Source of the DNA: Longimicrobiales bacterium
GTDB lineage: Bacteria; Gemmatimonadota; Gemmatimonadetes; Longimicrobiales; RSA9
Direction: 5' to 3'
DNA length: 64,000 bases
NCBI GenBank assembly: GCA_035461765.1
Contig: DATHUY010000004.1
Location: 18,368-82,367, forward strand
The position numbers and the translations under genes are program-made. The notes below the pieces were generated by a model that was not told where the DNA came from, made no database searches, and saw only the letters and a program-made list of their open reading frames with translations. Below are positions 2,471-48,577 of this stretch, one piece after another (position 1 is the stretch's first letter; each line of letters starts with the position of its first letter).

Positions 2471-5176
2471 ATGACGCACATCGATCGCGCCCTGAAGGCC
2501 TGGGGCTGCCTCATCATCATGACGGGACCGGCCGCAGCGCAGCAGCTGCCGACGCTGGAGCCCGCGGACTATGCCCGCTGGGAAAGCATAGGCACCAGCG
2601 AGCTGTCACCGGACGGGCGCTGGGCGGCCTGGACGATCTCACGCGTCGACGGCGATGACGAGCTGCGTTTCCGCGCGGTCGATGGCGACTCGACGCACAT
2701 CGTCGCGAACGCCTCGCGGCCGGCTTTCTCGAGCAACGGCCACTGGCTCGCGTACACGATCGGCTACTCGGAAGAGGAGCGTGAACGGCTCGAGGAGGCG
2801 GGCGGGCCGGTGCGCGGCAAGGTTGCGATCGCGGACCTGCGATCCGGTGCCACGACCGTGATCGCTGACATTGCCGACTTCTCGTTCAGTGCCGACGGCT
2901 CATTCATCGCGCTTCACGGCTACAGCGATCCGGCGCGCGGCAGCGCCGGCCGCGATCTGATCGTGCGCGATCTCGACCGGTCGATCAACACGAGCTTCGG
3001 AAACGTCGCTGATGCGAAGTGGCAGCCGGGCGGCGCACTGCTCGCCATGATCGTCCACGGCCAGAGCCGGGCAGGCAACGGCGTGCGCACGTTCGATCCG
3101 GTCACCGGCGTAATCCGCACGTTCGAGTCCGATACGGCTGAGTACACCGGCCTCACCTGGCGCGAGGATGATGACGACCTGGCCGTGCTGCGCATCCGCA
3201 AGGTCGAGGAATACAGGGAGCCGACTCACGCCGTGCTCATCTGGCACGACGCCAGCGGACCTGCGCCGCTGCGGGCGGTGCTCGATCCCGCCACTCATGG
3301 CTCCTTCCCCACTGCACACAGGATCGTCGAGAATTACGAGATCGGCTGGAGTGATGACGGTGGCACGGTGTTCATCGGTCTGCGCGCCTGGACGCCGCAG
3401 GACGCAGCGGCAGACAGCGCTGCACCGGGGTCAAAGGAGAATGGGGACACGGCGGGTGTGGCCGTATGGCGGTCCGACGACGTCGACATCGTTCCCGCCC
3501 AGAGGCGGCTCGGCATGTTCGACCGGAACCGCAGCTGGGTAGCGGCCTGGCGCGTCGAGGGCGATCGCTTCATTGCCCTGGCTGATTCCACCATCAGCGA
3601 CGTGGCCCTCTCCGATGGCCGGTTCGCCATCGCCGTGGATCCCGCGCCCTACGAGCGCGAGCGCATGTTCGGCCCCGAGTATCGTGACCTGCATGTCGTC
3701 GACGTGACGACCGGCGAACGTACGCCGGTCGCGCGCCGCGTGCAGTTCCATTACGGCGTGTCACCCACCGGCCGCTACCTGCTGTACCTGCGTGATGGCG
3801 ACTACTGGACGTGGGACACCGAGCTGAAGCGCGAGACGAACATCACCGGCAGTCTGGGGACCAGCTTCGTCAACCTCCAGGATGACCACACGGTCGAGGA
3901 GAAGCCGCCGTACGGTACGGGCGGCTGGACGACCGGGGACGCCAGTGTCCTGCTCTACGACCGCTATGACGTGTGGGAAGTACGACCGGACGGGTCGGGC
4001 GCGACGCGCGTGACGGACGGCGCGGGCGACCGCATCCGGCACCGGCGTGCGTGGCTCAACCCCCGCGACCGCATCGTGGACCGCACGAAGCCCGTATATG
4101 TCGCGCTTTACGGCGACCGCACCAAGCGGTACGGCTACGGCAGGATCCTGCCCGATGGACGTGTCGAGCAGCTCGTGCTGCTCGCCCGCAGCGTCAGCCG
4201 GCTGACGAAGGCGGACAGTGCCGACGTGTTCATGTACCGGATCGAGGACTTCGATGACTCGCCCGACCTCTTCGTGGCCGGGCCGACACTCGCCGACGCG
4301 GTTCAGGTATCGGAAACGAATCCGTTCCAGAACGAATACGCCTGGGGCCGCTCGGAGCTGATCGACTTCCGCAGCGCGACGGGTGAGGATCTCCAGGCGG
4401 CGCTGTTCTATCCGGCGAACTATGAGCCCGGCCGCGCGTACCCGATGATAGTCGACATATACGAGATCACGTCGAACACGGTCCACACGTACCGCGTTCC
4501 GTCGGAACGCACGCCGTACAACACGACCGTGTTCACGCAGAACGGCTATTTCGTGCTGCGTCCTGACATAGTCTACCGCGGGCGCGACCCGGGCGTGTCC
4601 GCGGTGGAAGCGCTCGTGCCTGCGGTCGAGAAGGTCGTGGAGACCGGCATGGTGGATCGCGCGCGCATCGGGCTCGTCGGCCACTCGTGGGGTGGCTATC
4701 AGACGGCATTCGCGGTGACACAGACCGATCTGTTCAGTGCGGCAGTCGCGGGTGCACCGCTGACGAACCTGATTTCGATGTACCTGTCGGTCTACTGGAA
4801 CACGGGGATGACAGACGCCCGCATTTTCGAGATCGACCAGGGCCGCATGGAGGTGCCGTTCTGGGAAGACCTTGATGCCTACATGCGCAACTCACCGCTG
4901 TTCAGCATTCAGCAGATGGACACGCCGCTGCTGGTCGCGTTCGGCGACGAGGACGGCGCGGTCGACTGGAACCAGGGCGTCGAGCTGTACAACGCCGCGC
5001 GCCGCGCAGGCAAGGACATGGTCCTGCTGGTCTACGAAGGCGAGAATCACTCGCTCGCGAACGAGGCCAACCAGCTGGATTACCATCGCCGGATCCGTGA
5101 GTGGTTCGACCATTATCTGAAGGGCGCGCCCGCGCCCGACTGGATCGTGAAAGGATTGACGAAGCCGCAGACATGA
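2471..5176 (+). CDS. S9 family serine peptidase (prolyl oligopeptidase/DPP-like, beta-propeller plus alpha/beta hydrolase)
   Basis: Lies in ORF 2228..5176. Nucleophile elbow GHSWGGYQTAF; C-terminal FGDEDGAVD and GENHSL acid/His regions; TolB-like repeats (SPDGRWAAW, SSNGHWLAY). Start chosen at ATG 2471 (MTHIDRALKAWGCLIIMTGPAAAQQ); the start is uncertain. Confidence 0.85.
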   Translation: MTHIDRALKAWGCLIIMTGPAAAQQLPTLEPADYARWESIGTSELSPDGRWAAWTISRVDGDDELRFRAVDGDSTHIVANASRPAFSSNGHWLAYTIGYSEEERERLEEAGGPVRGKVAIADLRSGATTVIADIADFSFSADGSFIALHGYSDPARGSAGRDLIVRDLDRSINTSFGNVADAKWQPGGALLAMIVHGQSRAGNGVRTFDPVTGVIRTFESDTAEYTGLTWREDDDDLAVLRIRKVEEYREPTHAVLIWHDASGPAPLRAVLDPATHGSFPTAHRIVENYEIGWSDDGGTVFIGLRAWTPQDAAADSAAPGSKENGDTAGVAVWRSDDVDIVPAQRRLGMFDRNRSWVAAWRVEGDRFIALADSTISDVALSDGRFAIAVDPAPYERERMFGPEYRDLHVVDVTTGERTPVARRVQFHYGVSPTGRYLLYLRDGDYWTWDTELKRETNITGSLGTSFVNLQDDHTVEEKPPYGTGGWTTGDASVLLYDRYDVWEVRPDGSGATRVTDGAGDRIRHRRAWLNPRDRIVDRTKPVYVALYGDRTKRYGYGRILPDGRVEQLVLLARSVSRLTKADSADVFMYRIEDFDDSPDLFVAGPTLADAVQVSETNPFQNEYAWGRSELIDFRSATGEDLQAALFYPANYEPGRAYPMIVDIYEITSNTVHTYRVPSERTPYNTTVFTQNGYFVLRPDIVYRGRDPGVSAVEALVPAVEKVVETGMVDRARIGLVGHSWGGYQTAFAVTQTDLFSAAVAGAPLTNLISMYLSVYWNTGMTDARIFEIDQGRMEVPFWEDLDAYMRNSPLFSIQQMDTPLLVAFGDEDGAVDWNQGVELYNAARRAGKDMVLLVYEGENHSLANEANQLDYHRRIREWFDHYLKGAPAPDWIVKGLTKPQT

Positions 5177-7524
5177 GCAGCACAGCAGCAGGCAGTACCG
5201 GTCACACCGTCGGCGCCACAGGTGGCGCTGCCGTCTCTCCCGGACAGATGGCGCAGCGTATCGCGGCGGAGCTGTCGCTTCAGCCGCGACAGGTCGCGGC
5301 CGCACTGGCGTTGTTCGATGAGGGCGCGACCGTGCCGTTCGTCGCGCGGTACCGCAAGGAGGCGACGGGCGGCCTCGATGAGGTCCAGCTGCGCGATGTG
5401 CTCGAGCGCTCGGAATACCTGGAGGAGCTCGAGGACCGACGCGCGGCCATCCTCAAGTCGATCGAGGAGCAGGGCAAGCTCGATGACGCGTTGCGCGCGC
5501 GGATCGTCGCCGCGGACACGAAGCAGGCGCTGGAGGACCTGTACCTGCCCTACAAGCCGAAGCGCCGCACGCGTGCGACGATCGCCCGGGAGCGCGGCCT
5601 CGAACCGCTCGCGGAGCTCATCTGGGCGGGTGCGGCCGATGACGCGACGGTCGAGCGTGAAGCGGTGGCGTTCGTCGATCCCGAAAGGGAAGTGGCCGAT
5701 GTCGAGGCCGCGCTCCAGGGCGCGCGCGACATACTGGCGGAACGTGTTGCGGAAGATGCCGCCCTCCGGGCATGGGTGCGCGACCGCACGCGCGCCGCAG
5801 GCGTGATCACCAGCAAGGCGCGCGGCGAGCGCGATCCGGCGACGTCGAAGTTCGCGGACTATTTCGACTTCTCGCAGAAGCTGACGGAGATCCCGTCGCA
5901 TCGCGTGCTCGCGATCCGGCGCGGCGAGGCGGAGGAGGAGCTGTCGTGGAGCATTGAAGCGCCAGTCGAGGAGCTGACCGCGGGACTCACGCAGCGGGTC
6001 GTCGCGGACCGTGCGGCTGTGCGTCAGCTCACGCAGGTGGCCGCGGATGCATATCGGCGGTTGCTGTCGTCGTCGATCGAGGTGGAGCTTCGACTGGAGC
6101 TCAAGTCACGTGCGGATGAGGAAGCGATCGGCATCTTCGGGGCCAACCTCGAGCAGCTCCTGCTGGGAGCGCCTGCCGGCGGTCGCGTCGTGCTCGGCCT
6201 CGACCCGGGATTCCGCACCGGTGTGAAGGCCGCGCTCGTATCGAAGACGGGCGCAGTCCTCGACACGGAGACGCTGTACCTCCACCAGGAGGACAACTTC
6301 ACGAGGGCGATCGAGCGTCTCGTGAAGCAGCACGCGGTCGAGCTGATCGCGATCGGCAACGGCACCGCGTCGCGTGAGACGGAAGCACTGGTGAAATGCA
6401 CGATCCAGCAGCTTCCCGCGCCGCGGCCGCAGGTGCTGGTCGTCAACGAGTCCGGTGCATCGGTCTACTCCGCATCGGACATCGCGCGCGAGGAGATGCC
6501 GGACCTGGACGTGTCGATGCGCGGTGCGCCATCGATCGCGCGACGACTCCAGGACCCGCTCGCCGAGCTGGTGAAGATCGATCCCAAGTCGATCGGGGTC
6601 GGTCAGTACCAGCACGACGTCAACCAGTCGCGGCTGAAGAAGCGGCTCGACGAGGTAGTGGAGACGTGCGTGAACCGTGTCGGTGTCGAGCTCAACACAG
6701 CTTCCGCGCCGCTGCTGTCGTACGTCGCCGGTGTCGGCGATACGGTGGCGAGGAACATCGTTGCAGCGCGCGACAATCGCGGCGGATTCCGCTCGCGGCG
6801 CGAGCTGCTCGAGGTGCCGCGGCTCGGCGCGAAGGCGTTCGAGCAGGCGGCCGGCTTCCTGCGCGTACGTGGCGGCGAGCACCCGCTGGACGCGACCGCC
6901 GTGCACCCGGAGCGCTACGCACTGGTCGAGCAGATGGCTGCAGACCTGGGCGTCCCCGTCGCGGAGCTCGTGCAGAACGACGCGCTGATCGATCGCATCG
7001 AGCTCGGCCGCTACGTGAACGGCGATGTCGGGCTGCCGACGCTGCGCGACATCGCCGATGAGCTGCGGCGTCCGGGCCGTGACCCGCGCGACACGTTCGA
7101 GCTGCCGGCGTTCCGCGATGACATCACGTCGCCGAAGGACCTGAAGCAGGGCATGACGCTGGAGGGTGTCGTTACGAACCTGGTCGCGTTCGGTGCATTC
7201 GTCGACGTAGGCGTGCATCAGGATGGTCTGGTGCACGTGTCACAGCTGGCCGACCGTTTCGTGAAGGATCCCGCGGACGTGGTGAAGGTCGGGCAGAAGG
7301 TGAACGTCACGGTCATGAGCGTGGACCTGGAACGGAACCGGATCGCGCTCAGCATGAAGAGCGGCGCCGCACAGCAGCCGGGCGCCCGGCCGGATCAGGC
7401 AGCCGGAGGCGCGCATGGGAAGGCCCGCGAGAAGCGCGGGAAGCGCGAGCAGAAGCCGCGCGAGAAGCCGGTGGTCGTGCCGCAGAAAGGCGATGTGGCG
7501 CCGAATGGCATGAAGTTTCGTTGA
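5173..7524 (+). CDS. tex: Tex-like transcription accessory protein (YqgF/HhH/S1 domains)
   Basis: IAAELSLQPRQVAAALALFDEGATVPFVARYRKEATGGLDEVQLR is the canonical Tex N-terminus. C-terminal S1 domain is GMTLEGVVTNLVAFGAFVDVGVHQDGLVHVSQL. ATG 5173 overlaps the upstream stop (ATGA at 5173-5176). Confidence 0.92.
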   Translation: MSSTAAGSTGHTVGATGGAAVSPGQMAQRIAAELSLQPRQVAAALALFDEGATVPFVARYRKEATGGLDEVQLRDVLERSEYLEELEDRRAAILKSIEEQGKLDDALRARIVAADTKQALEDLYLPYKPKRRTRATIARERGLEPLAELIWAGAADDATVEREAVAFVDPEREVADVEAALQGARDILAERVAEDAALRAWVRDRTRAAGVITSKARGERDPATSKFADYFDFSQKLTEIPSHRVLAIRRGEAEEELSWSIEAPVEELTAGLTQRVVADRAAVRQLTQVAADAYRRLLSSSIEVELRLELKSRADEEAIGIFGANLEQLLLGAPAGGRVVLGLDPGFRTGVKAALVSKTGAVLDTETLYLHQEDNFTRAIERLVKQHAVELIAIGNGTASRETEALVKCTIQQLPAPRPQVLVVNESGASVYSASDIAREEMPDLDVSMRGAPSIARRLQDPLAELVKIDPKSIGVGQYQHDVNQSRLKKRLDEVVETCVNRVGVELNTASAPLLSYVAGVGDTVARNIVAARDNRGGFRSRRELLEVPRLGAKAFEQAAGFLRVRGGEHPLDATAVHPERYALVEQMAADLGVPVAELVQNDALIDRIELGRYVNGDVGLPTLRDIADELRRPGRDPRDTFELPAFRDDITSPKDLKQGMTLEGVVTNLVAFGAFVDVGVHQDGLVHVSQLADRFVKDPADVVKVGQKVNVTVMSVDLERNRIALSMKSGAAQQPGARPDQAAGGAHGKAREKRGKREQKPREKPVVVPQKGDVAPNGMKFR

Positions 7525-7553
7525 TCGCTCCTGGCATGGGAAGGGGGCGGAGG

Positions 7554-7676
7554 GGCGGCGGTGTCCACCCGGCGCTCGGACAGTCCTCGTCGCGGGGGCG
7601 GCGGTGTCCACCCGACGCTCAGACAGTCCTCGTCGCTTCGCTCCTGCGGAACTCGCGGCGGGTGGACACCGCCGCC
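7554..7676. repeat. Hairpin repeat family 1: half copy (7554-7593) followed by a complete copy (7597-7676)
   Basis: 18-bp perfect inverted repeat GGCGGCGGTGTCCACCCG (7597-7614) / CGGGTGGACACCGCCGCC (7659-7676) around a 44-nt loop. The preceding 40 nt repeat the left arm plus half the loop with 2 mismatches. Related copies lie at 45667-45740 and 45820-45905. Starts 30 nt after the tex stop. Confidence 0.85.
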
Positions 7677-7843
7677 GCCTCCGCCTGACGGGATGCCACC
7701 CCGCTGCTCTGCCTCCATGGCGGTGGGGCAGGGCGTCGCCAGCCTGGCGGGCCGGAGCGGGGGAATCGGCAGCCAGCGCGTCCTGAGGTTGCAGGGCGCC
7801 TCTCATCGTCCCACTCTACAGCACTGCGAACGGAGCAGGCGCA

Positions 7844-8248
7844 ATGAATCTCCCGCGGCGCGGGTTTCTGGCGATCATCGGTGCGGCGGCAATGGCGCCG
7901 GCCACGCTGGTTTCAGGCGCAACGACACGTGCAGGTGGAGCCGCGATGTTCGGACTGATAGGGAAGATGACGGCGGTGGCCGGCCAGCGTGATGCGCTGG
8001 CGGAGATTCTGCTCGCGGGCACGGACTCGATGCCTGGCTGCCTGAGCTACATCATCGCCGCCGATCAGACGGACGCGGACGCGCTCTGGATCACCGAAGT
8101 ATGGGACAGCAGGGAGAGCCACGAGGCATCGCTGACGCTACCGGCCGTGCGGGCGGCGATAGCGAAGGGGCGGCCGCTCATCGCGGGGTTCAGTGACCGC
8201 ATGGAGACCACGCCGCTCGGCGGTCACGGTTTGCAGGAGCGCCGCTGA
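7844..8248 (+). CDS. ABM (antibiotic-biosynthesis-monooxygenase-like) domain protein with twin-arginine signal
   Basis: MNLPRRGFLAIIGAAAMAPATLVSGA looks like a Tat signal. The rest (MFGLIGKMTAVAGQRDALAEILL..LWITEVWDSRESHEASL) has the ferredoxin-like ABM pattern. Confidence 0.7.
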   Translation: MNLPRRGFLAIIGAAAMAPATLVSGATTRAGGAAMFGLIGKMTAVAGQRDALAEILLAGTDSMPGCLSYIIAADQTDADALWITEVWDSRESHEASLTLPAVRAAIAKGRPLIAGFSDRMETTPLGGHGLQERR

Positions 8249-43548: not shown

Positions 43549-43753
43549 GATGCCTCCGGGTTAAGTCCCACACCCAATGTCACGCTGCGGCACTGCCGAC
43601 TCAAGGAGGCTGTGACCATTGGGACCCTGCGCCTCTGCACGGCCGGCGTGCGGGGACCTCCGTCCGATCCGGTTGACAGCTCCAGCGGTGGCCGCTCATA
43701 CTTGCCGGGCGCTTCCCTCGTACGCTCGCCATCCTCTGTCCGGCAGGTTGTTC

Positions 43754-45658
43754 ATGCGATTCAACATTCTGGCAATTGCCGTCGTCAGCGCGGCGCTGCC
43801 CGCAGTGCAGCTGGCGCCCGTCGCAACGTCGCAGCTCCACGCGCAGGTGACGCCGCGCCATGACGTGCCGCCGCCGCGGCAGACGCAGCGCCCCCCGCTC
43901 CACGGGTCGGAGTGGGTGGCAGTGACCGGCAAGCCGCTCGGGGCGGCGGCCGGCGCCATGATCTTTCAGCAGGGCGGCAACGCCGTCGACGCAGCGGCCG
44001 CCATGCTCGCTGCTACCGCCACCATGTGGGACGTCCTGTCGTGGGGCGGCGAGACACAGGCGCTGATCTACAATCCGGACACCAGGCAGGTGATCGGCAT
44101 CAATGCGCTCGGCGTCGCACCGACAGGCGCGACCGTCGAGTACTATCGGTCGCAGGGCTACAACTATCCACCGGAGTACGGCCCGCTCGCTGCCATCACG
44201 CCGGGCACGCCCGGCGGCCTGATGGTCATGCTCGCGGAGTACGGCACCATGTCGCTCGCGCAGGTGCTCGCGCCCGCGATCCGCCTCGCGGACGGCTATC
44301 CCATCGAGGCGCAGACGGCCAACTCGATGGAGAACAACAAGGACCAGATCAAGAACTGGCCGTACTCTACCACCGTATTTCTGCCGCACCTCGGACAGGA
44401 ACGCGAGGCGCCGGAGCCGGGGGAGATGTTCCGGCAGGCGGACCTCGCCGCAACACTTCGCAAGCTCGTCGAGGCGGAGCAGAACGCACTGCGTGCGGGC
44501 AAGTCGCGCAAGGATGCGATACAGGCCGCGTACGACCGCTTCTACCGCGGCGACATCGCGGAGGAGCTGGTCCGCAGCACGCGCGAGCAGGGCGGCCTCT
44601 TCACAATGGAAGATCTCGCCACCTGGGAAGTGAAGATCGAGGAGCCGCTCTCCGTCAATTACAAGGGCATCGACGTCTACAAGCTCCAGCAGTGGCAGCA
44701 GGGGCCTGTGATGCTGCAGGCGCTGAACATAGCCGAAACGCTCGATCTCAAGTCGCTCGGCTACAACACGCCCGAGTACATGCACACGATCTACCAGATC
44801 ATGAATCTGGCGTACGCCGACCGCGACTTCTATTACGGCGACCCAGCATTCCCGCCGGAGGAGCCGATGCGCGGCCTGCTGTCGAAGGAGTACGCGCGCG
44901 AGCGAGCGAAGCTGATCGATCCGGAGCGCAACGACACCACCATCAAGCCCGGTGACCCCTATCCGTTCCAGGGCGGAACGAACCCGTTCAGGGAGCTGCT
45001 GGACAAGTGGCCGCCACCGCCGAAGCCGGTGCGCATCGCGGCCGCCAGCGACAGAAGCTGGGAGGACGCGTTCTACGCGGGCACGACGTCGATCCAGGCG
45101 GCCGACTCATCAGGCTGGGTCGTTTCGATCACGCCCAGCGGCGGCTGGATCCCCGCTGTGATTGCCGGACGCACGGGCGTCGGCTTGAGCCAGCGCGCAC
45201 AGCAGTTCGTGCTCGACCCCGCGGAGAACCCGTTCAACGTGATGGAGCCGGGGAAGCGTCCGCGTGTCACACTTACGCCGACACTCGCGCTGCGCGACGG
45301 CCTGCCGATGATGGCGTTCTCGGTGCAGGGAGGCGACTCGCAGGATCAGAACCTGCTCCAGTACTTCCTGAACGTCGTCGAGTTCGACATGACGCCGCAG
45401 CAGGCGGCCGAAGCGCCGAACATCAACTCGTTCCAGATGCGCAACTCGTTCGACGACCACAGCGCGCAGCCGGGCCGCATGCTCGTGCCCGCGGCCGCCG
45501 GACCCGAAGTGCGCGCCGCACTGGAGCGCATGGGCTATTCACTGCGCTTCTCCCAGCGCACGTCCGGGCCGATCACTGCGATCTGGTTCGACCGCGAGCA
45601 CGGCACGATGTGGGGTGCGGCCAGCAACTTCGGCGAGGACTACGGCATCGCCTGGTAA
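43754..45658 (+). CDS. ggt: gamma-glutamyltransferase
   Basis: Lies in ORF 43619..45658 with ATG at 43754 (MRFNILAIAVVSAALPA). Contains GGNAVDAAAAMLAATATMWDVLSWGGE. The autoprocessing/nucleophile site is FYAGTTSIQAAD. SGGWIP and GGDSQDQ motifs are present. Confidence 0.9.
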   Translation: MRFNILAIAVVSAALPAVQLAPVATSQLHAQVTPRHDVPPPRQTQRPPLHGSEWVAVTGKPLGAAAGAMIFQQGGNAVDAAAAMLAATATMWDVLSWGGETQALIYNPDTRQVIGINALGVAPTGATVEYYRSQGYNYPPEYGPLAAITPGTPGGLMVMLAEYGTMSLAQVLAPAIRLADGYPIEAQTANSMENNKDQIKNWPYSTTVFLPHLGQEREAPEPGEMFRQADLAATLRKLVEAEQNALRAGKSRKDAIQAAYDRFYRGDIAEELVRSTREQGGLFTMEDLATWEVKIEEPLSVNYKGIDVYKLQQWQQGPVMLQALNIAETLDLKSLGYNTPEYMHTIYQIMNLAYADRDFYYGDPAFPPEEPMRGLLSKEYARERAKLIDPERNDTTIKPGDPYPFQGGTNPFRELLDKWPPPPKPVRIAAASDRSWEDAFYAGTTSIQAADSSGWVVSITPSGGWIPAVIAGRTGVGLSQRAQQFVLDPAENPFNVMEPGKRPRVTLTPTLALRDGLPMMAFSVQGGDSQDQNLLQYFLNVVEFDMTPQQAAEAPNINSFQMRNSFDDHSAQPGRMLVPAAAGPEVRAALERMGYSLRFSQRTSGPITAIWFDREHGTMWGAASNFGEDYGIAW

Positions 45659-45666
45659 AGATGGTC

Positions 45667-45740
45667 GGCGGTATCCACCCTCCGCTCAGACAGTCCTCGG
45701 CGCTGCGCGCCTGCGGAACTCGCGGAGGGCGGATACCGCC
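45667..45740. repeat. Hairpin repeat family 1, complete copy with compensatory arm changes
   Basis: GGCGGTATCCACCCTCCG (45667-45684) / CGGAGGGCGGATACCGCC (45723-45740). The loop CGCTCAGACAGTCCTCGGCGCTGCGCGCCTGCGGAACTCG is nearly identical to the loop of the 7597-7676 copy. Starts 9 nt after the ggt stop. Confidence 0.85.
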
Positions 45741-45819
45741 TCCCTTGTCTGGTGGGGCAGGGGACGGGGGGGCGCGCGCTCCGCTGGGACAGTCTCCGCG
45801 CTGCGTGCCTGGTCGGATC

Positions 45820-45905
45820 GGCGGTGTTCACCCGGCGCTCGGACAAGTCCTCGTCGCGTCACTGGCGCGCCGCTCCTGCGGAGCTCGCGACGGACGATCA
45901 CCGCC
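45820..45905. repeat. Hairpin repeat family 1, degenerate copy
   Basis: GGCGGTGTTCACCCGGCGCTCGGACAAGTCCTCGTCGC matches copy 7554-7593 with 1 substitution and a 1-nt insertion. The right side ..CTCCTGCGGAGCTCGCGACGGACGATCACCGCC is diverged. A further fragment (CGCTGGGACAGTCTCCGCGCTGC) lies at about 45780-45803. Confidence 0.7.
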
Positions 45906-46135
45906 GATCCTCTGCATTGGGGACGGGGTGTCGCGCTACTGCCGGGGGACAGAGTACCGCGGCAGAGAGGCGGCGCGTGGGGGGCGGCGGACGTCAGATT
46001 AGCCCCGCGGCCGTCGGCACGGCGGCTGGGGCCTGGTTGCCGTCGCACGGCGCCGTCGCGTTTACCCCGAGGCCCTCAGCAGGGCGGCCTGGGGCACGAT
46101 TGACTTATCAACGCCACGCTACAACGGCAAACCGC

Positions 46136-48481
46136 TCACCGCTCGACGAGCCGCTCCAGCAGATCACGCTTCCGTCGCACGCGTGGCTGCAGCTCAGGAT
46201 CGGCGTCTTTCCAGAGCGCGATGAACAGCCCCGCGTAGTTGCGCGCCGCCTCGAGGTCGCCGGCCGCCTCATACAGCTCGGCGAGGCTCTCATACGCGGG
46301 CGCGAGCTCCCACGCGTCGTCAGTGATGCGGTCCATTGCGGTCGCATCGATGTAACGACGGTAGTAGAGGATGGCTGAGTCCGGCATCTCGGCGACGCGG
46401 AACGCCGATGCGAGCGTCGCCAGCCCGCAGAAATCGCACGAGCCGTAGTCCGCCGCCTCGCGGAACCGCTGGACCGCATCGGCCGGTCGGTTCTCCGCCA
46501 TTGCGATCCAGCCCAGGGCGGTCGGCAATATCCAGTTGCCGTCGCCTCGGTCGGATTCCGGCAGATCCTGCCACTCCGCGATCAGCCGCCGCGCCTTGGC
46601 AGGTTGGCCAGTCGCGGCATATCCCTGGGCCACTTCCAGGTAGCCGCGCGTGGCGGGCGGCGTCTCGCGCCACAGGTCGCTCGCGAGGATGCCGTCGAGC
46701 CGGCGGAGCGCGGCTTCGGGCTTCTGCAGCACCCACGCGTCGAGCCCCGCGAGCGTGCCCTCGTGCCACAGGCCGGCCTGGGAGATGCCGCGGGCGCGGT
46801 TGGCCGCCAGGCTCTCCTCGTACAGCCGGCGCGCCTCGCCCAGGCGACCCAGCATCTGCGTCAGTCCGGCGAGCGTGAACGTGGACCGCGCCCGCCACAC
46901 GTCCGAATCGCGGCTGTCGTCGACGAGCTGGCGCAGGATGCGCTCCGCTTCTTCGTAGTTACCCTCCGCCTGCGCCAGTCCGGCAGCGAACGCGCGATTG
47001 TCGCGCTGGTCGGGGAACCGCTCTGACGCGGCGTCGAGGAGCGAGCGCGCCTCCGCGGTATTGCCGCGGTAGTATTCCGTGAGCGCGAGGTTCGTCCACG
47101 AGCTCGGCACGAAGGAATCGACGGCGATCGCGCGGTGATAGTATTCGGCAGCGCGATCCTGGTCGCGGATGCGGCCGTACGCGAGCGCGATGTTGTTCAG
47201 CGCGGTGTGATCGTCAGGGTACGTGTCGAGCAGCGTACGGTAGGCGTTGATCGCCGCGGTATTGTCGGGTCCGACGTTCAGGTGGTACAGGGCGATGGTG
47301 TGATAGCGCTCGCGTTCCGTGAGCCGGTCGCGATGCTCGTACGCCATGCGCGTAGCATGTGCGAGTCGGTCCCGTCCCGCGCGCGCATTGTTGTAACCGA
47401 CCGCCAGCTTGCGCCACGCCATCGCGAACGTGCTGTCCTCCGCAACAGCCTCCTGCAACAGGCGGATGCCGCGATCGTAATCCCGCTCCATATCCAGCGC
47501 ATGTGTCCCCTGCGTGTAGAGCTCGAGCGCGCGCAGTGACGCGGTGGTCACTGCCTCGAGCGGCGCGTCCGCACGCACGGTGCGCAGTGATTCGCCGATC
47601 CGCTCGCGCAGCTTCCGTGACATGCGGTCGATCGCGGGGATCACATCCGCTTCACCATCCGCCGTTTCGCGATGGGATATCAGCAGCTCACCGGTCCCGG
47701 CGTGGAGCAGTCGAGCGGTGATGATCGAGCCCGAGCCGGCGGGCGTGATCTCGCCTTCCAGTACCGCCTTCGCGCCCTCCCGTATGGCCACCTCGCGCGC
47801 GAGTGCGCCGGTCAGCCGCGCGTCGCGCGGGCGCCCCATGCGCTGGAGCGCATCGCCGAGGAACCGTGACTCGAGCACGGTGACCACAGGCGACTGGGCG
47901 AGGTCTACGCGGAGCGCTTCGGTGACGGCAGCAGCGGTCACGGTATCGCCGGACGCATGCTCCAGCTGTGCGATGATGATGCGGTCGCGCGCATCCATCG
48001 CTCCCGACGTGATGAGCGACGCAAAGCCCGGCACGCCGGCATTGCGGAGCCCGATGTAGCCGCCCGCCGTGAGGCCGAGCATCAGAAACGCGACCAGGCC
48101 CGCGAGTACCGACCGCTGCCAGGTGAGGAACGCGTGCGGCCGCGCGGGCGTGAGCAGTGCAGTCCCGCCCGCTCTGCGTTCTGCCGGCTGCGGGTCGAGA
48201 CCGGGCACCAGCGTCGGGTCGGCCGGTCCGACCTCCTCCGGTCGGTCGAACACCGACTGCCCGGGCAGCCCCTCCTGCACGATCGCCGTTGCGATCACGA
48301 TCGGCAGTCCAATCAGGAAAAGCACGATGGCGAAGCCCGGCACCCAGTCGGGCAGCCCCATTCGCGTGGTTACTTCAGCGATGATCTCGTAGATCGCCCA
48401 TGAACCGAACAGATAGACACCGAGGACCTGCCACAGGGAGCGGCGGTGCATCTCGATGATGAGAGACCTGATGCGCTGCAT
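46136..48481 (-). CDS. membrane-anchored TPR-repeat protein
   Basis: Lies in ORF 46136..48535 with ATG at 48481 (MQRIRSLIIEMHRRSLWQVLGVYLFGSWAIYEI). Two TM segments are followed by a periplasmic alpha/beta domain and about 10 TPR-like repeats (e.g. AIAVDSFVPSSWTNLALTEYYRGN). Confidence 0.78.
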   Translation of the reverse strand: MQRIRSLIIEMHRRSLWQVLGVYLFGSWAIYEIIAEVTTRMGLPDWVPGFAIVLFLIGLPIVIATAIVQEGLPGQSVFDRPEEVGPADPTLVPGLDPQPAERRAGGTALLTPARPHAFLTWQRSVLAGLVAFLMLGLTAGGYIGLRNAGVPGFASLITSGAMDARDRIIIAQLEHASGDTVTAAAVTEALRVDLAQSPVVTVLESRFLGDALQRMGRPRDARLTGALAREVAIREGAKAVLEGEITPAGSGSIITARLLHAGTGELLISHRETADGEADVIPAIDRMSRKLRERIGESLRTVRADAPLEAVTTASLRALELYTQGTHALDMERDYDRGIRLLQEAVAEDSTFAMAWRKLAVGYNNARAGRDRLAHATRMAYEHRDRLTERERYHTIALYHLNVGPDNTAAINAYRTLLDTYPDDHTALNNIALAYGRIRDQDRAAEYYHRAIAVDSFVPSSWTNLALTEYYRGNTAEARSLLDAASERFPDQRDNRAFAAGLAQAEGNYEEAERILRQLVDDSRDSDVWRARSTFTLAGLTQMLGRLGEARRLYEESLAANRARGISQAGLWHEGTLAGLDAWVLQKPEAALRRLDGILASDLWRETPPATRGYLEVAQGYAATGQPAKARRLIAEWQDLPESDRGDGNWILPTALGWIAMAENRPADAVQRFREAADYGSCDFCGLATLASAFRVAEMPDSAILYYRRYIDATAMDRITDDAWELAPAYESLAELYEAAGDLEAARNYAGLFIALWKDADPELQPRVRRKRDLLERLVER

Positions 48482-48577
48482 GGTGTTCCGCGGCTGGGGG
48501 ATGGCTGGCAGGCAACCATTCCCAAGATGCCGCACGCCGGCCGATGCTGCAAGCGACCCGTTCGCCGGGCGCCGACG

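Follow-up and report, generated by a model that had tools for sequence, protein, structure and literature searches.

What are the hairpins that recur behind 2 genes, tex and ggt, of a Longimicrobiales bacterium? The stretch in which they lie, 64,000 nt of contig DATHUY010000004.1 (assembly GCA_035461765.1), was analysed as a whole and is called the window here. The original prediction, made from its letters alone, saw in them a local family of hairpins of approximately 75 nt with a conserved loop, apparently outside any known Rfam family and, by implication, part of the 3' untranslated region (3'-UTR) of the tex and ggt messages. The analysis points to something larger, namely, one lineage's version of a cross-phylum motif that exists in 2 circular permutations. 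On sequence grounds, the window copies can be securely assigned to a very widespread, hitherto undescribed family of structured repeats, characterized by an invariant 2-strand core, covarying helices, and a preferred folding strand, in addition to the 2 permuted forms.

The 2 best copies in the window, both assigned to the minus strand, define the unit. In copy 1 (7597-7676), the arms of the outer helix P1 are perfectly complementary over 18 bp (GGCGGCGGTGTCCACCCG at 7597-7614 and CGGGTGGACACCGCCGCC at 7659-7676), with 44 nt between them, as originally described. What had been taken for a conserved loop is indeed conserved; however, it is not a loop, but consists of 2 strands, S1 (the 17-mer CGCTCAGACAGTCCTCG, 7616-7632) and S2 (the 13-mer CTGCGGAACTCGC, 7644-7656), flanking a capped mini-helix, P2 (7633-7643, TCGCTTCGCTC). 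P1 is extended inward by pairing of CGC (7616-7618) with GCG (7655-7657). Copy 2 (45667-45740) has the same architecture, with P1 arms at 45667-45682 and 45724-45740, S1 at 45683-45699, the P2 cap at 45700-45710, and S2 at 45711-45723, and its internal 17-mer and 13-mer are identical to those of copy 1. The P2 mini-hairpin reads TCGC-TTC-GCTC or GCGC-TGC-GCGC in the window, the latter being that of copy 2. The stems of the 2 copies differ by 2 changes, both two-sided (GTGTCC/GGACAC to GTATCC/GGATAC, a G:C to A:T replacement, and CCCG/CGGG to CCCT/AGGG, a G:C to T:A replacement), to which an overlooked A.C mismatch of the copy 2 plus strand (CCACCC/GGGCGG) has to be added; on the minus strand, the mismatch is a G.U wobble. 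Fold z-scores of the 2 copies are −5.8 and −5.9. When S1 is searched for in the window with up to 3 mismatches, 5 matches are obtained versus 0.69 expected, and none of 100 shuffles reaches 5. A covariance model built from relatives finds exactly 3 full copies in the 64 kb, all on the minus strand: copy 1 (7599-7672, 61.7 bits, E 7e-14), copy 2 (45666-45739, 61.6 bits), and a decaying copy 3 (45820-45903, 40.2 bits, E 3e-8), the next match scoring 15 bits.

That the pairing itself is selected had been argued from the 2 changes between the 2 window copies, which are thin evidence alone. Our conclusion that the pairing is under selection draws instead on covariation in the wider family. In an alignment of 36 window-type copies, all 10 of 10 P1 pairs show compensatory changes, and 91% of the P1 cells are paired, compared to 76% after column shuffling and 29-42% when the partner is slid; the first 3 positions of P2 display several pair types. 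The comparison also reaches into the core. Across distinct elements, the pair S1-13:S2-6 is C:G in 188 cases, G:C in 4, and C.A in 3 (C.A being G.U on the reverse strand), and this distribution supports a putative 5-bp core helix, AGUCC/GG(A)ACU, with a bulged A.

How far does the family extend? With one genome per species, a scan for S1 returned at least 120 loci, and the matches listed include Nitrospirota, Beta-, Gamma-, and Deltaproteobacteria, Bdellovibrio, Campylobacterota, Coriobacteriia, and Lachnospiraceae, as well as Bacteroidota, Planctomycetota, Omnitrophota, Spirochaetota, and several lineages of the candidate phyla radiation. The S1/S2 pair occurs at no fewer than 177 loci (at least), with a core of approximately 30 nt that is almost unchanged across well over 10 bacterial phyla. 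Among the matches listed, S2 lies close by in 120 of 143 S1 matches, in the order S2-linker-S1 in 79 and in the window-type order, S1-hairpin-S2, in 40. Because both orders occur, the core, which sits between 2 predicted helices, either of which can be the closed one, is read as circularly permuted. As a reverse test that avoids ascertainment on S1, metagenomes were scanned with S2 plus 5 nt as the anchor; the remaining 12 nt of S1 were recovered, with 2 mismatches at most, in 77 of 126 matches, and within this set, S1 varies only at positions 6 (A/G) and 7 (G/A). The GC content of the hosts ranges from 33% to 74%, and in AT-rich genomes, the flanks are AT-rich and the core is unchanged. Plasmid and phage collections yielded no real matches, and 2 of the 5 matches in viral contigs were true. 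Coding potential was considered and rejected: the S2-S1 linker varies in length (2, 6, and others), and therefore no reading frame is kept. Consistent with the original suggestion that no known Rfam family is involved, Rfam 15 gave no match in the whole window and only a tRNA in 18 diverse loci at the gathering threshold; relaxing the cut-off to E up to 10 added nothing but spurious microRNA-hairpin matches. Neither the S1 nor the S2 string, in either orientation and written as DNA or RNA, turned up anything relevant in the library of papers searched, and topic searches were without match. Bacterial intergenic repeats, such as repetitive extragenic palindromic (REP) sequences and miniature inverted-repeat transposable elements (MITEs), are thought to be lineage-specific, and a core of approximately 30 nt that is virtually invariant from Gemmatimonadota to Nitrospirota, Proteobacteria, Actinobacteria, Firmicutes, Bacteroidota, and the candidate phyla radiation is unexpected.

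Some loci carry the core in settings of their own. In Lachnospiraceae loci L048, L059, and L076, and in L110, AT-rich outer helices contain a recurrent CUUAG/CUUAG segment (U.U mismatch) beside a tandem G.A (GUGAGC/GCGAAC), which suggests further conserved non-Watson-Crick modules. In 2 Desulfobacterota (L036, 1-130 and 2740-2930; L098), the core lies inside a longer conserved repeat (...GCGCACCGCTCCC..CATAAG.CGGGT.CCCG.GAGACT...). The GTGCGCC directly 3' of the motif in these 2 loci, with which the repeat begins, resembles the 5' end of a group II intron; the candidate was rejected, as there is no Rfam intron match and the string is part of the longer repeat.

Which strand folds? In 97 of 110 instances, it is the reverse complement that folds better, with a mean advantage of 5.9 kcal/mol; this holds in nearly every lineage and irrespective of the side of the local GC skew on which the element lies. 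When 20 beta-proteobacterial copies are folded jointly with RNAalifold, the consensus of the reverse strand reaches −63.2 kcal/mol and has 53 pairs, of which 29 are compensatory, and that of the forward strand reaches −36.7 kcal/mol and has 40 pairs; in the same family, the reverse strand shows approximately 75 G.U cells versus 11 A.C cells. The window copies, with their near-perfect stems, fold about equally on both strands, copy 2 reaching −56.8 kcal/mol on the minus and −51.3 kcal/mol on the plus strand. Since the reverse complement folds better family-wide and the C.A cells become G.U there, the window copies most likely function through their minus strand, a call made at the level of the family. 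Independent support for it comes from an accessory pseudoknot of many relatives (see below), the topology of which is compatible with the reverse strand only.

This strand preference bears directly on the reading implied at the outset, in which the hairpins would be plus-strand structures of the tex and ggt 3'-UTRs, serving as terminators or as stabilisers against 3' exonucleases. Both clusters do start 9-30 nt after a stop codon (7522-7524 for tex and 45656-45658 for ggt), on the gene strand, as originally noted, and the hairpins are very stable; REP elements in Escherichia coli can stabilise the upstream mRNA. Nevertheless, because it is the other strand that is selected to fold family-wide, a plus-strand 3'-UTR RNA is disfavoured. 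Furthermore, terminator scans of 7300-8000 and 45500-46300 found 0 terminator-like sites, no T run follows any window copy, and the elements show no more than a weak preference for one orientation with respect to the gene upstream. In 2 close relatives, tex is not followed by the element, and mere termination or stabilisation would not call for an invariant 30-nt core common to many phyla. We regard this explanation as quite improbable.

On the folding strand, the layout is 5'-P1-GCGAGUUCCGCAG-P2-CGAGGACUGUCUGAGCG-P1', the core reading P1 / GA GUUCC GCAG / P2 / CGA GGAC UGUCU GA / P1. Modelled in this way, the core would contain a tandem G.A/A.G adjoining P1 in a Y-GA-R context, a bulge of 5-6 nt (UGUCU), a 5-bp helix GUUCC/GGAC with a bulged U, an A.G mismatch, and a bulged A before P2. 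The terminal caps are mostly C-GNA-G triloops, exemplified in the window by GC-GAA-GC and GCGC-GCA-GCGC; such triloops are best known as very stable DNA mini-hairpins.

An imperfect hairpin with conserved extrahelical bases on one strand, and with its function tied to a specific strand, also recalls the folded single-strand recombination sites of integrons (attC) and the hairpins that serve as insertion targets for IS110/IS1111 elements and class C group II introns. The details do not fit: the attC R-box GTTRRRY is absent, the sole GTT being that of GTTCCGC, neither an integrase nor a cassette organisation is present in the window or at any locus, and what is conserved in attC sites is structure, not a sequence of 30 nt. 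Of the explanations considered here, this one appears the least probable by our estimate.

Beta- and gamma-proteobacterial copies and many metagenome copies, as opposed to those in the window, are parts of a 200-300-nt element with further covarying helices. Many relatives (again, not the window copies) carry the accessory H-type pseudoknot mentioned above, in which loop 1 mirrors the pyrimidine strand of the stem. The exact third strand required for parallel U.A-U, C.G-C, and G.U-A triples is found in 43 of 58 distinct elements, with 8 variants of the purine arm, compared to twice in a reversed control. Examples are L087 (1507-1716 and 2703-2912), L047, L018, L002, and many metagenome loci, e.g., L132 and L208. 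The accessory domain matched none of the corresponding Rfam families at the gathering threshold. Another recurrent feature is GTAG, the REP/RAYT tag: of 193 distinct elements, 101 carry it in their flanks on the folding strand, versus 25 for its complement, CTAC. In Coriobacteriia (L016, L042, L068, L095, and L106), it forms part of G(C/T)GTAGAGG at the 5' foot of the hairpin in approximately half of the copies, and it is present in most beta-proteobacterial copies (columns 31-36 of alignment A1).

Besides the full copies, the window contains pieces of the unit, all assigned to the minus strand, and the originally reported half, degenerate, and fragmentary copies near 7554-7593, 45820-45905, and 45780-45803 were recovered with slightly different limits. 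The half unit at 7552-7593 consists of a duplicated outer arm, S1 (CGCTCGGACAGTCCTCG), and TCGC, without S2 or a partner arm; these 42 nt are a direct repeat, with 95% identity, of 7595-7636, the 5' half of copy 1. Behind ggt, a degenerate fragment at 45764-45811, recognised from direct-repeat families and by reading the sequence, retains a remnant arm, the S1-like CGCTGGGACAGTCTCCG, a P2-like CGCTGCG, and the start of S2. It is followed by copy 3 (45815-45910), the arms of which (45815-45838 and 45887-45910) are 83% complementary; its S1 has a 1-nt insertion (CGCTCGGACAAGTCCTCG), P2 is longer, and S2 (45876-45888, CTGCGGAGCTCGC) has one substitution. The G-rich spacers GGTGGGGCAGGG and GGGGACGGGG recur 3' of the hairpins in both clusters (45748-45777 and 45919-45936; 7717-7740). 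Because the same GGGGAC precedes each unit in the close relative L122, these spacers are probably unit-boundary sequence.

Comparison of the spacer after tex among close relatives illustrates how such arrays may change. The element is present in 3 of them and absent from 2 (89% and 81% identical). A 95%-identical relative (L122, 4885-5080) has three 43-nt half units, a full copy, and the start of a second 3' half, and an 84%-identical one (L124, 4863-5011) has three 34-nt partial units and a full copy, the 2 arrays being broken at different points of S1. Judged from their sequences, these tandem half-unit arrays look like products of hairpin-induced replication slippage. L124 also contains, at 5223-5496, a second element family with the same core, a different stem (GGCGAGCGTCC), and the opposite orientation; ahead of it, a 37-nt unit that includes its 5' arm is repeated 5.9 times in tandem. 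In the 2 relatives without the element, the place is occupied differently. In the 89%-identical one (L123, 4700-4790), an 8-nt microsatellite, (GGCTGAGA)n, runs across the tex 3' end. In L125 (4800-4840), a plain GC-rich hairpin, GCGCCGCGGCA...TGCCGCGGCGC, stands at the same place after tex, perhaps an ordinary stem of the terminator type or a potential target.

The neighbouring genes provide context only. The tex gene (5101-7524, plus strand), which has Tex Pfam domains and homologs named Tex, is followed by a gene for an ABM monooxygenase (7844-8248, plus strand), and ggt (43619-45658, plus strand; PF01019, E 6e-104) by a convergent gene with TPR families (46136-48535, minus strand); the gene identities originally proposed thus hold at the level of Pfam. 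By its Tex homologs, the organism belongs to Gemmatimonadota. Within the monooxygenase gene, a weak covariance-model match (7999-8064, 15.2 bits, E 0.11) without the S1/S2 core is probably due to chance. Neither a promoter or terminator consensus adjoining the window copies nor, on inspection of the sequence, a direct repeat flanking them was found. The window copies may be passengers in the 3' spacers of genes, in arrays that would grow and decay by local slippage.

Across the family, the elements are intergenic, located 3' of a gene in 82 cases versus 5' in 53, and the folding strand is antisense to the upstream gene in 46 versus sense in 36; these statistics come from crude home-made gene callers and indicate weak trends only, including a weak orientation bias. 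No recurrent protein family lies within 2.5 kb in the 177 loci, and clustering of open reading frames (ORFs), in 120 and then in 177 loci, gave only common housekeeping families. With regard to a transposase or reverse transcriptase in cis, clustering of the neighbouring ORFs gave ABC ATPases and translations of the repeats only. The genes between inverted pairs are unrelated, and contig L109, with copies at both ends, holds ordinary genes.

What, then, does the unit do? The reading that we place first, while giving it somewhat less than an even chance, is that of a non-autonomous, trans-mobilised, REP-like hairpin repeat, whose folded single strand is the form that a trans-acting factor recognises. 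The unit comprises an outer helix, P1, in which the sequence is free and pairing is kept, a near-invariant asymmetric S1/S2 core, and a short capped P2; other lineages present the same core closed at P1 and open at P2, with lineage-specific domains added. Under this reading, the unit would act as a folded single strand, the minus strand in the window, with the core as the recognition module for the factor that copies or processes the element. The factor might be an HUH/Y1 enzyme resembling the REP-associated tyrosine transposases (RAYTs), encoded elsewhere in the genome and acting on single-stranded DNA. The anatomy, the covariation, the asymmetry of the strands, the distribution, and the genomic behaviour are observed; we infer the trans-acting factor, DNA rather than RNA as the active form, and mobility itself. 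The reading ranks first because of the REP-like genomic behaviour (location at gene 3' ends in both orientations, slippage arrays, degenerate copies, and presence or absence among close relatives), the GTAG tags, the DNA-type triloops, the lack of transcriptional signals, and the weak orientation bias.

A considerable body of observations weighs against it. A motif-level search of the window, the 120 genome loci, and the loci of the tex relatives found no ORF with HUH and Y motifs, although such a gene could lie elsewhere in the genome. The flanks of the window copies lack a GT[AG]G tag at the 5' foot of the hairpin on either strand. Empty-site comparison defined neither a target-site duplication nor an exact insertion boundary, the spacers of the element-free relatives being too diverged. 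Relative to the local GC skew, the better-folding strand is on the leading-strand template in 65 versus 35 cases, opposite to IS200/IS605. Where REP sequences and RAYTs evolve together, the repeats soon differ from lineage to lineage, and we know of no protein-recognised site in single-stranded DNA that keeps approximately 30 nt invariant over more than 10 phyla; such invariance is typical of the catalytic or ligand-binding cores of RNAs. To our knowledge, small ribozymes are the classic case of natural circular permutation, which has no precedent among REPs. In addition, G.U wobbles are frequent, and the pseudoknot with a covarying triple helix, present in many relatives, would be less surprising in a functional RNA than in mobile DNA.

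These points lead to an alternative that we rank second and consider possible, if on balance doubtful, namely, that transcription of the minus strand yields a functional RNA module complete in itself. Such a module could be a small self-cleaving ribozyme of a new class, or a motif of the kink-turn (K-turn) or loop-E type that binds a universal factor, riding on a dispersed repeat or itself constituting one, with the core as active or binding site, the helices as scaffold, and the lineage-specific domains as tertiary stabilisers. Its RNA-like traits are the near-invariance of the core across phyla while the helices covary, the 2 natural permutations, the lineage-specific peripheral domains, and the triple-helix pseudoknot (43 of 58 elements). 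Many copies per genome, strand-specific pairing rich in G.U, and the conserved GA..GA dinucleotides that flank the bulge on the folding strand agree with it as well. Conversely, the promoter and terminator consensus missing beside the window copies is not conserved in the family alignments either, antisense placement of the folding strand relative to the upstream gene slightly outnumbers sense placement, most caps are triloops where structured RNAs usually have GNRA or UNCG tetraloops, and the minimal window copies have only 2 helices, with a P2 of 4 bp. Moreover, many small ribozymes are common in plasmids, phages, and viral contigs, whereas this element was missing from the plasmid and phage collections and had few matches in viral contigs. 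A bolder version, which we think unlikely, albeit worth stating for its consequences, would make the S1/S2 core the active centre of an undescribed class of small structured nucleic acids, most strikingly a self-cleaving, catalytic, or ligand-binding RNA. As conceived there, the class would span much of the bacterial domain, including the candidate phyla radiation, in 2 permuted forms, often with a triple-helix pseudoknot.

Several resemblances to individual RNAs and DNA sites were examined and set aside. S1 shares the 9-mer GACAGUCCU, which we take to be the substrate sequence of the hairpin ribozyme of satellite tobacco ringspot virus (sTRSV), but the word belongs to the strand opposite the one selected to fold, a loop B is missing, as is any match to RF00173 or to Rfam as a whole, and no second internal loop was seen in the 75-nt copies of the window. 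Short words recalling the Tn3 inverted repeat (GACGCTCAG), a DnaA box (TATCCAC), the ops site (GGCGGTA), the sarcin-ricin loop, helix 8 of the signal recognition particle RNA, the 5' end of RNase P RNA, tmRNA, and 16S/23S fragments were attributed to chance, given that, in a comparison by eye, the arrangement differs and the stems vary by lineage.

The 2 leading readings carry different implications. As an RNA, the element would be a candidate for a widespread ribozyme or protein-binding motif of a new kind, missing from Rfam; as single-stranded DNA, it would offer the first case of a DNA-processing enzyme with a deeply conserved substrate. Under either, a precise and testable consensus is now available.

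How does the element compare with known systems? Like the miniature inverted-repeat elements Correia/NEMIS, ERIC, RUP, and Nezha, it is multi-copy, non-coding, hairpin-forming, and intergenic. However, in those elements, the terminal repeats are conserved and the interior is free, whereas here the termini (the P1 arms) vary and the interior is invariant. Neither the conserved terminal inverted repeats nor the target-site duplication that mark a MITE were seen. The accessory pseudoknot has the loop 1 mirror strand and covarying triples of RNA triplex pseudoknots, but it is multi-copy and does not reside in 5' leaders; the same topology, an H-type pseudoknot with a parallel triple helix, is shared by telomerase RNA and by the SAM-II/V and preQ1-II riboswitches. 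With the K-turn and other tandem sheared G.A motifs, the core has in common a GA on each strand beside a Watson-Crick helix and a bulge 5' of one GA (5'-GGAC UGUCU GA GCG / CGC GA GUUCC). Unlike in the K-turn, the bulge has 5-6 rather than 3 nt, an alternative register pairs A4 with U8, and the invariant GA gives no covariation signal; furthermore, we know of no L7Ae-type partner that is universal in bacteria. The self-cleaving ribozymes (hammerhead types I-III, twister types P1, P3, and P5, and hairpin) resemble it in the conserved unpaired core, the variable covarying helices, the permutation, the many copies per genome, the wide spread, and the optional peripheral domains, and what characterizes such ribozymes in general, a conserved core between covarying helices together with permuted natural variants, is found here. 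It departs from them in having 2 helices only and no match to an Rfam ribozyme at E up to 10.

The closest parallel in genomic behaviour is with REP, BIME, and REPIN sequences and their RAYTs (TnpA_REP, HUH-Y1). The element differs from them in conserving an internal 2-strand core of 30 nt across phyla, where REPs have a 4-nt tag and a lineage-specific stem, as well as in its 2 permutations, the lack of GTAG at the window copies, the failure to find a RAYT gene nearby, and the pseudoknot and triplex domains of some relatives. REPs are described as lineage-specific, hairpin-bulge-hairpin types are known among them, and a widespread subclass of Y1 enzymes, 2.1, is without a known REP partner (PMC6006769). 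Should the active form be single-stranded DNA, the element might supply a partner for this subclass (PMC6006769), which we offer as a lead only. The likeness covers short GC-rich imperfect palindromes that are intergenic, lie at gene 3' ends in both orientations, and are clustered in arrays (with 2 clusters in the 64 kb of the window), several families per genome, one folded DNA strand proposed to be the functional one, and, in Coriobacteriia and the beta-proteobacterial families, GTAG on that strand.

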